62,414 nt of DNA, taken from Chlamydiota bacterium (GTDB taxonomy: Bacteria; Chlamydiota; Chlamydiia; Chlamydiales; JAAKFR01). Shown piece by piece: positions 9,918 through 12,900 of this stretch. A program made the translations under genes and the position numbers. How positions within the stretch are numbered: the stretch's first letter is position 1; every line of letters starts with the position of its first letter. The DNA lies in NCBI GenBank assembly GCA_013288105.1, contig JABDCM010000003.1, positions 1 to 62,414 of the forward strand. The letters run 5' to 3'. The notes under the pieces are model-generated. The model was given only the letters and a program-made list of their open reading frames with translations. It searched no databases and was not told the DNA's origin.

Positions 9918-12900
9918 AGTTTGAATTAAATCAAGCAATTAAAAAAGAAAAAGATCTCTTTGAAAAATTCTATCACTGGCTTGTTGAAAGCATGCCGAAA
10001 ATCTTCTTTGAAGAGGTTTCAAATGAGTGGATCTCTTTGATTGTCCACAATTTAATGAGCTTCAAAGAGCAGGATTTTTTCGTAAAAATCCATCTAAAAA
10101 ATGCAGCCATTGTTCTCAGTATGGATGAAGCGCATGCGGATGTTACTATCCTCGAGGGGTTTCCGATGTATGGGATCAAGAATTATACCACCTATGTTTC
10201 ACTTGCCTCTCCCCCTTTTGTTGAAAGTAATTTAAAGCTGAGAATTGCCATTATCCTCTTTACAGACCTGAGTTTTGGGTTGTCTTCCTCGAAGTCGGAG
10301 AAGGTTACACCGCAGATCTTGGGATTTTTTGACGAAGTAAATGGCCCAAGGCCCTTTACGAGTCAGAAAAGCACAAGAGATGCAAGTAAACTTCCTGAAT
10401 TTGAGGAAGAAAAACACAAAATTCAGGTTACAGAGGTTGTAGAAAAGGAGCTTCAAGGAGAGCTTACGCAACAGATAGATCCCCTTTTTTTAAGACCTCT
10501 CTCTCCACAACTTCAGCTGATTGCTTTAGAAATGTTTGAAAGAGCTCAAACCAGAGATCACTGTCAATATGACATTCAGTATATAGAGAATTGGCAGGAA
10601 AAAAATCTCCCCTCCGTGCAGATTATTTTGGCCTGGAAAAATGTTCCTAAACACAATTTCTTATATAGATTGGCACGTGTTGTCTATCAACATAATCTGG
10701 TGATGCAGCGCGTCAATGCAGCCTATATTAACCCCTACAAAACAAATTCCATTTTTCTTCTCTCTTTCAATTTACATGGGAGCAAGGGAGAGGCAGCTCA
10801 AGAGGCGGCTGATATCTCCTCTTTTCTTCAGGAAATGGTGATGCTCAAATATTTTGGCTCCATGGATCAGATCGATGCAACCTTTGTGGAACCCAAAATT
10901 TTACGAGGGAATTTGGGTAATTTTCTGCGTACTTTAATGCATTTCGTCCATCAAGTACTTCTCAATCTAGATCCCCACCAATATACCTTAGAAAATATTG
11001 AAGAGGGGCTCTGTCGCCATCCAGAGCTTACGCTTAAATTGTGTGAAGCTTTTGAATATAAATTTCATCCACAACAGCATGATCTGATTCAGTTTGAAAA
11101 GAGGCGAGAGGAGTTTATCCAGCTGGTAGAGCGACTGGATACAGGTCATGAATATCATGATGTCCGACGTAAAAATATTCTTCTGCAAGGAATGAGCTTT
11201 GTTGTGCACATTTTAAAAACCAACTTTTACTGCTCCAATAAGACGGCACTTGCTTTTCGTTTAGATCCCAGATATCTGGATGCAGCCCCTTTTGATCGCA
11301 AAAAAATTTTCCCCGAGCTCCCCTTTGGGATTTTTTTCATAAAAGGGATGCATTTTGTCGCTTTTCATGTCCGTTTTAAAGATTTGGCGCGCGGCGGACT
11401 GCGCACAGTCTATGCTGAAAAAAGAGAGCGGGTACTTGCGGAGAGGAATGTTGTCTTCAGTGAATGCTACCACCTTGCCTATACACAGCATAAGAAGAAT
11501 AAGGATATTCCTGAGGGGGGGGCTAAATGTGTCATCTTTTTGAAACCCTACGAGAGGCTGATCTCTGAAGCTGCTATCTATGCGCGAGAGATGAGGGAGG
11601 GGGGAATTTCTCAAGAGCAGATTGAGAAGAAAATTGAGAGTTTCAAAGCAGAGCAGAAACTTGAGTATCTCTACCAAACCCAACGCTCTTTTATTAAGAA
11701 TTTCCTTACTCTCATCAATTGCCTTCCTGATGGCACTCTGAAGGCACATAACATCCTAGATTATTGGAAAAAACCTGAATATATCTATCTCGGCCCTGAT
11801 GAGAATATGCATGATTCCATGATTGCATGGATTGCTCAAGAGAGCAAAAAAGAAAAATATAAGCCTGGAGGCGCCTTTATCAGCGGAAAACCGGAGATTG
11901 GGATCAACCATAAGGAGTATGGGGTTACCTCTCTGGGCGTCAATACCTTTATGCATGAGATCCTCCTCTATTTGGGGATTAACCCACTTGTGACCCCCTT
12001 TACAGTGAAGATGACAGGGGGTCCTGATGGGGATGTAGGGGGCAATCAAATTTATAATCTCTATCGTTTTTATCGACATACAGCAAAATTGTTAGCCCTT
12101 ACAGATATCTCTGGAACGATTTATGATCCTCAAGGGTTGGATTTAGAAGTATGTGTTCGTCTTTTTCATGAGAAAAAATCGATCCGCTTTTATCCCCATG
12201 AAAAACTCTCCGTAGGGGGCTTTTTACTTGACCGCGAGAGCAAAAGAGAGTCGACCCCCTATGTACAACAAACGCTCTGTTGGAAAAACCAGCAAGGGAG
12301 AGTAGTTGCCGATTGGTTATCTGGAAATGAGATGAATACCCTTTTCAACCATAACGTGCATCAGATACAGGCCGATATTTTTCTTCCCTGTGGAGGACGC
12401 CCGCGCACTTTAAGAGAGACCAATTACAAGGACTTTCTCAATTCCAGAGGAGAGGCCACCTCAAAAGCAATTGTCGAGGGGGCAAACCTCTACCTGACCC
12501 CCTGGGCAAGACAGGAGTTAGAGGAGAGGGGGGTTCTGATTGTCAAAGATAGTTCAGCAAATAAGGGGGGGGTGATCTGCTCCTCATTTGAAATTCTATG
12601 CAGTTTGACCCTGACTGACCAGGAGTTTTTAGCGCATAAAAAAGTTTTAGTCGCAGAAATTCTAGAGCGGGTTCAGAAATGTGCACTCGATGAGGCCAGA
12701 CTGATGCTAGAGACCCATAAAAAGAATAAACTCCCCCTGACTGAATTATCTGAAGAGATCTCAAAAAGGATCAACCATTTTACAGATGAGATTTTTGCCT
12801 CTCTTGAGCCTATGAAATTATCAGAAAAGGGGACAGACCCCCTCATTCAATGTTTTCTGCATTACTGTCCCAAGACATTGAGGGAGAATTTTTCAAAAAA

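Follow-up and report, generated by a model that had tools for sequence, protein, structure and literature searches.

The window analysed here is a 62,414-nucleotide stretch of a Chlamydiota genome assembly (G000; 969 kb, 61% complete). It contains a gene for a large NAD-glutamate dehydrogenase (GDH) of the about 115-kDa class, and the front part of this gene carries a MITE with terminal inverted repeats and a target-site duplication (TSD). The features of this locus and the other family copies in the window are collected in Table 1.

Table 1. Coordinates of the GDH locus and of further MITE family copies in the window. X1 is one DNA run, possibly from the source sample; no RNA run with this sequence was listed, and X1 depth summed across the MITE does not reflect copy number.
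Feature	Coordinates	Strand	Remarks
Large NAD-GDH gene	9914..13054	+	1046 aa; insertion host; PF05088, PF00208
Left TSD copy (TACAG)	10261..10265	+	Seen in sequence; 5-bp TSD family-wide
163-bp MITE, single long hairpin	10266..10428	+	Encodes GDH aa 118-172; open only from codon position 2, on both strands
Left terminal inverted repeat	10266..10281	+	IS982-type AC(N6)T(N5)TT end; 15/16 against both ends of IS982 element L111
Right terminal inverted repeat	10413..10428	-	14/16 against left end; 15/16 and 13/16 against IS ends
Right TSD copy (TACAG)	10429..10433	+	Seen in sequence
Antisense open frame spanning the MITE	10232..10471	-	Results from the second frame open in the MITE; not treated as a gene
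Junction of 26-codon deletion relative to orthologs (approximate)	10445..10453	+	About 5 codons behind the insert; inside one gap-free X1 contig
151-bp copy in UDP-N-acetylglucosamine pyrophosphorylase-like gene	24608..24758	-	12-bp internal deletion; 156 bp net = 52 codons
Intergenic 216-bp composite	32081..32296		Two short terminal family units flanking an unrelated multicopy palindrome
Intergenic 36-bp mini version	43049..43084		Terminal unit only

The 163-bp element and one 5-bp TSD copy add 168 bp, or 56 codons, without closing the GDH frame; computed removal of the 168 bp leaves an open protein of 990 aa. The earlier note on this DNA had described a TACAG-flanked 163-bp element of 56 codons inside an open frame with GDH motifs, and all of this was seen again. 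The catalytic-region motifs were found at aa 528, 627, 663, 702, 855, and 879. In the alignment, 274 of 281 near-invariant columns (97.5%) were retained, which is within the range of same-family orthologs, and the predicted structure of the N-terminal part matched the large GDH of M. smegmatis. The suggested extension of the TSD to TTACAGA did not hold, since the 7-bp extension consists of the MITE's own end bases and fails elsewhere, e.g., at C1:103497. The peptide that had been quoted as the 56-codon product has 55 residues, and the 56th is the duplicated Thr. The antisense frame across the element is open as claimed, and the idea that the other orientation could be tolerated is borne out by a copy in BamD, which lies in frame and uses the antisense frame of the MITE. 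What had been overlooked is that the MITE has terminal inverted repeats, belongs to a multicopy family, and adjoins a 26-codon deletion.

The linker segment that contains the insert was compared across GDH homologs. Among 120 listed homologs, 115 were measurable, and in 112 of these the segment was 121-133 aa long and contained no such insert. The outliers were G000 (157 aa), G013 (181 aa), and G024 (94 aa), and the MITE peptide itself was present only in G000 and G013 of the 120. The absence of the insert from 112 homologs and the 5-bp TSD of the whole family support the transposition event that had been proposed. Without the MITE, the G000 segment is 101 aa long compared to 127 aa in most orthologs: the protein resembles its orthologs for about 5 codons past the site, and then 26 residues are missing. 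The prediction of a clean 56-aa gap was therefore half right, because the orthologs lack the insert but 26 conserved residues are gone just downstream, and the net gain in length over orthologs is about 30 aa rather than 56. A close relative of the G000 GDH was not found in the homolog search, in which the best match reached 47-49% over the region.

The ACT-like topology of large GDHs, as described in the accessible part of PMC8175468, was used to place the site. In an insert-free ortholog model, the first ACT-like domain closes with a strand, behind which come a 12-residue coil (117-128) and then helices 129-142 and 148-157. The lost 26 residues correspond to the end of the linker, the first conserved predicted helix (129-142), and a turn. 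In the AlphaFold model of the G000 GDH, the insert had pLDDT values of 34-59 compared to about 90 in its surroundings. The intact TSD shows that a transposase cut at the MITE end did not cause the deletion. The residues were probably lost in a separate event from a segment that was already dispensable; in the G024 GDH (L017), 33 residues of this linker-helix segment are absent, and there is no MITE.

The G013 GDH carries a 54-codon copy of the same MITE family about 12 codons downstream of the G000 site, with a decayed right end. This copy clustered with other old G013 copies in the tree, apart from the G000 GDH copy, and the two GDHs were not sisters in a quick tree. Thus, the two insertions are independent. 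They sit at opposite ends of the 12-residue coil of the ortholog model, and two independent hits in one such linker mark a permissive site. The proposed location in a permissive N-terminal loop is supported both by this second genus and by the low-confidence AlphaFold stretch after the first ACT-like domain. The G000 copy is young, having a perfect TSD and 4 differences from its nearest sibling.

The GDH insertion is one copy of a phylum-wide MITE family and not a unique event. The element is short and without a transposase, its inverted repeats agree at 14/16 bases, its copies are dispersed with 5-bp TSDs, and the orthologous sites are empty. G000 contains ten 163-bp copies, one 164-bp copy, one 151-bp copy, five complete 325-bp composites, three 95-bp copies, and about a dozen mini versions of 35-37 bp. 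The GDH copy shares 143-159 of 163 bases with each of its nine 163-bp siblings in G000. Family DNA was matched in 14 of 41 relatives, G000 counted. When paired exact ends 150-180 bp apart were searched, the family was detected in 43 of 301 Chlamydiota genomes, with one control hit, and the same search gave none in 30 genomes of family f19. Most listed copies of family f8 are 166 bp long (171 bp with the 5-bp repeat, a multiple of three). The GDH copy folds into a hairpin of -81.3 kcal/mol (z = -10.7), and none of 200 shuffles was as good. The in-frame peptide had no Pfam or NCBIfam match, and in an Rfam scan of the MITE, all hits were miRNA-hairpin models from plants and animals, with scores far below gathering.

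The TSD length was assessed on 67 copies with good ends. Of these, 28 were flanked by a perfect 5-bp TSD, compared to 3.2% for cross-paired flanks, and 43 by one with no more than one mismatch; at the same boundaries, a TSD of 6-9 bp was found for 0/67 copies. Target sites of the family have the consensus T-A-W-T-A. An alternative of 165 bp plus a 3-bp repeat agrees with 36/67 copies and likewise gives a net 168 bp. The 163 + 5 arrangement is favoured because four copies, the GDH one included, deviate from the outer T/A alike on both sides.

Several composite forms were also observed. The multicopy palindrome (about 140 bp) within the 216-bp composite of the window occurs on contigs C4, C6, C10, C14, C15, C39, and C45 as well. 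Another, near-perfect palindrome of 162 bp with TA-rich ends is nested in the MITE loop at C2:41409, C4:22277, C7:27690, C8:4722, C13:19277, and C15:3242, and within G000 it was found only inside the MITE; loci L033, L035, L038, L050, L040, and L041 are G000 composites of this kind. The resulting 325-bp composite has been copied at least six times, and its sense frame is open in 4 of the 5 complete copies (330 bp = 110 codons). Elsewhere in the window, a lone terminal-repeat fragment at 6404-6465 forms a hairpin arm just behind a seryl-tRNA synthetase-like gene and is perhaps a reused terminator. Two small ORFs at 6464-7115 (-) resemble, by eye, a RelE/HigB-type toxin and HTH antitoxin pair. 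A 39-bp direct repeat (46106-46144 and 46938-46976) is 92% identical between copies 832 bp apart, the first of which lies at an ORF end.

The terminal sequences point to the IS982 family as a mobiliser. The accessible text of PMC7335449 gives AC(N6)T(N5)TT as the IS982 end logo. Both MITE ends fit it, which is weak alone because the logo has five fixed bases only. Among 20 PF13612 loci fetched from relatives, two have MITE-type ends: L111 in G024, a 1021-bp IS982 element whose ends match the MITE left end at 15/16, and L114 in G013, a truncated IS982 element with the same left end. The ORF of L111 is split, scores 229.8 bits against NF033520 (IS982 transposase; cut-off 130), and the flanks of the element are not a 5-bp repeat. 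The MITE and L111 were matched by blastn at their termini only (16-17 terminal bases), so that internal derivation from this IS was not found. An IS982 transposase was not found in the 61% complete G000, nor in the complete G020 genome, despite its young MITE copies. Judged from these ends, the MITE was likely moved in trans by an IS982 transposase.

The coding properties of the family were then compared. When entered at codon position 2, the G000 163-bp copies were stop-free in the sense frame in 9/10 cases and in the antisense frame in 6/10, and the other four frames always contained stops. Of the shuffled versions of the GDH copy, 23% had at least one open frame and 1.5% had one on each strand. 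By rough ORF calls, about 90% of G000 DNA lies in long ORFs, and of 11089 target-like sites, 1935 were outside long ORFs and 4143 were in the tolerated phase. Within genes, the target motif falls in this phase, codon position 2, more often than in either other one (4143 of 9154 sites). Therefore, the number of non-disruptive targets would rise twofold at most with a frame open on one strand and threefold at most with frames open on both.

Further in-frame copies were identified by comparison with orthologs. In G000, these are the copy in the UDP-N-acetylglucosamine pyrophosphorylase-like gene (frame 23401-24984, -), whose orthologs lack the insert and where no neighbouring deletion was seen, and a truncated copy in a conserved 630-aa protein, also clean against orthologs. 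Clean in-frame inserts were found in GDH, MnmE, Ogt, and a glycosyltransferase of G013 and in a glycosyltransferase-like protein of G011. A G020 peptide-binding protein appears to lack host sequence at its in-frame insert, based on one pairwise alignment. The relatives' copies came from top DNA or peptide hits (60 regions fetched), a selection that favours open copies. The RecD, L094, L100, and L036 copies received no ortholog-based call as coding inserts. The G000 copies before transaldolase, 2-oxoacid acyltransferase, UPF0137, and HAD hydrolase genes were left uncounted, as their frames are open but lie upstream of the likely start. In practice, the MITE makes gene calls of environmental chlamydiae too long or gives them a wrong start. 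At two of the G013 loci, the position of the insert within the host protein was visible. The Ogt copy (L109:1074-1886) splits the DNA-binding domain, apparently in the turn between two helices, and the copy in the tRNA-modifying GTPase MnmE (L101:461-1975) lies inside the G domain, directly behind the NKxD-type motif.

In a tree of 58 copies, an open clade of mostly 163 bp was separate from a closed clade of 160-164 bp, here called the 162/164-bp clade, with stops in the open-clade phase. The closed clade has stops in all frames, and 0/16 of its copies lie in a spanning ORF. It is the abundant young clade in G013 and, by length, in G024: exact-ended copies are 164 bp long in 22/29 cases in G013 and 19/25 in G024. 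This majority rules out that a frame-neutral length is required for spread. The two sister clades, one keeping and one breaking the frame, share genomes and provide a natural control for whether coding compatibility is under selection. Closed-clade variants of 238-239 bp with an extra palindromic loop insert were also seen in G020 (L064:1540-1779 and L065:1496-1736).

The pN/pS ratios of the in-gene inserts were 0.66 for 7 G013 copies and 0.92 for 4 G011 copies, compared to 0.27-1.2 for off-frame controls, with one indel-misaligned group left out. Purifying selection on the peptide is thus weak at best. Folding energies were -27 to -72 kcal/mol for old in-gene copies in G011, G013, and G014, compared to -79 to -97 kcal/mol for the 163/164-bp G000 copies. 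As judged from these sequences, the reading frame is retained after insertion, and the peptide and the RNA hairpin evidently drift. The MITE peptide is likely a tolerated passenger that would be translated rather than spliced.

The reading that we prefer, at a probability of roughly 0.8, is that a non-coding MITE of IS982 type, likely mobilised in trans, inserted in frame into GDH, where it would be translated as a 56-residue, predicted-disordered passenger in a tolerant linker of an enzyme that likely still works. An IS982 transposase would move the 163-bp MITE in trans and duplicate 5 bp at sites resembling T-A-W-T-A. Copies that land in the tolerated phase at a permissive spot would survive, and copies elsewhere in genes would be purged or would kill dispensable genes.

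A more far-reaching version appears doubtful. It holds that the 163-bp clade was selected for coding stealth, as the multiple-of-three length with TSD, the frame open across genera and here on both strands, and the frame-keeping nested 162-bp palindrome might suggest, and that it remodels enzymes. The GDH peptide would then have let a conserved helix of the regulatory domain be lost, which would amount to insertion-driven module replacement with a nameable transposase.

It is unlikely that the MITE insertion, with the adjoining 26-residue loss, crippled or deregulated the GDH, either as a young pseudogene or by poor translation through the hairpin. Helix 129-142, which is confident in the ortholog model, is missing, and the mRNA would carry a hairpin of -81 kcal/mol. 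The ACT-like domains are proposed as allosteric sensors of large GDHs in the accessible sections of PMC8175468. The insertion is also recent, too recent for decay to be visible if the gene were dead. However, the frame is intact over 1046 aa with 97.5% of the near-invariant columns, and the branch length in a quick tree was 0.45 compared to 0.39 for the sister. Furthermore, G024 does without 33 aa of the same segment and has no MITE there, and G013 retains an old, decayed insert in an intact GDH.

Less likely still is a co-opted insert, in which a structural peptide compensates for the lost 26-residue linker and helix and the insertion and deletion are coupled. The deletion does begin 5 codons behind the insert, and the G000 model extends the next helix into the last residues of the insert (H165-187) with a weak helix at 131-142, but these helices have pLDDT values of 42-59 and may echo the alignment. 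In a MAFFT alignment, the peptide had seemed to imitate the deleted helix, an idea that was rejected when the insert scored at chance (-1.8, 1.0, and -17.8; P 0.18-0.52) in a test with a profile built from 86 homologs for the lost stretch. The G020 peptide-binding protein, in its single pairwise alignment, would be a second case of host sequence missing at an insert. In contrast, no neighbouring deletion accompanies the inserts in the UDP-N-acetylglucosamine pyrophosphorylase-like gene of G000 or in GDH, Ogt, and the glycosyltransferase of G013, and G024 lost the segment without any insert.

Removal or bypass of the hairpin at the RNA or protein level, by intron-like excision, a ribosome hop, or an intein, is very improbable. 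The hairpin is very stable and precisely closed, but old in-gene copies lose it and yet stay in an open frame, and frame-breaking sister copies occur in 0/16 ORFs although excision would have allowed them. No Rfam family came near its gathering score, and no Pfam or NCBIfam match was obtained. Inteins have a characteristic size and characteristic end residues, and the MITE peptide is far too short and lacks those residues. We give almost no credence to an assembly artefact that stitched a repeat into GDH: no single X1 contig spans the MITE, the flank contigs enter it by 30 and 28 bases only (against a bar of 31), and the private bases 10304 and 10347 are covered by no X1 contig examined, but both flank contigs run from GDH into the MITE without differences, X1 shows no joint that skips the MITE, the TSD is perfect, and both flanks are consecutive GDH sequence in orthologs.

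The translated-passenger reading extends peptide insertion of the kind known from Rickettsia (RPE) to Chlamydiota. The chlamydial MITE is not a new kind of system, and its peptide has no demonstrated function. No published description of this family was found among titles and abstracts, a search in which most subscription papers and ISfinder fell outside coverage. In the accessible text of PMC2229807 and PMC10969869, RPEs are hairpin repeats of about 150 bp in the obligate intracellular Rickettsia that often lie in frame in conserved genes; for an RPE in gmk, the product is made and active, the TSD is given as unknown in the review, and no RPE transposase is named there. The chlamydial MITE is likewise a stable hairpin of similar size in frame in conserved proteins. 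Unlike RPEs, it has a 5-bp TSD and an IS982 partner, and its peptide has no Pfam or NCBIfam match, a comparison made by protein models. NCBIfam includes RPE domain models. The defined TSD and the candidate transposase, absent for RPEs in the cited reviews, make the route of peptide entry testable.

Among the Correia/NEMIS elements of Neisseria, as far as PMC2229807 is accessible, a 107-bp class has open frames fused into genes, and a 155-bp class has stops in all frames and is intergenic. The 163-bp and 162/164-bp clades show the same open/closed split. The Correia elements are TA-ended with other inverted repeats, whereas the ends of the chlamydial MITE are AC and its duplication is 5 bp long. 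MITECca01 of Cardinium is described in the accessible portion of PMC9769881 as a lineage-specific element of about 240 bp derived from ISCca4 of the IS982 family, and the term 'in-frame' is absent from the text on it there. The chlamydial MITE shares the IS982 ends and the intracellular symbiont host; unlike MITECca01, it occurs across many families of the phylum, is 161-166 bp long, and enters genes in frame. Finally, ISPasp1 (1018 bp, 17-bp IR, 5-bp DR) and ISPasp2 of Parachlamydia are listed in the IS982 family in what is accessible of PMC7335449. The chlamydial MITE resembles this family in end logo and DR length, as L111 resembles ISPasp1 in size and layout, but the MITE encodes no transposase and has just 16-17 terminal bases in common with L111.
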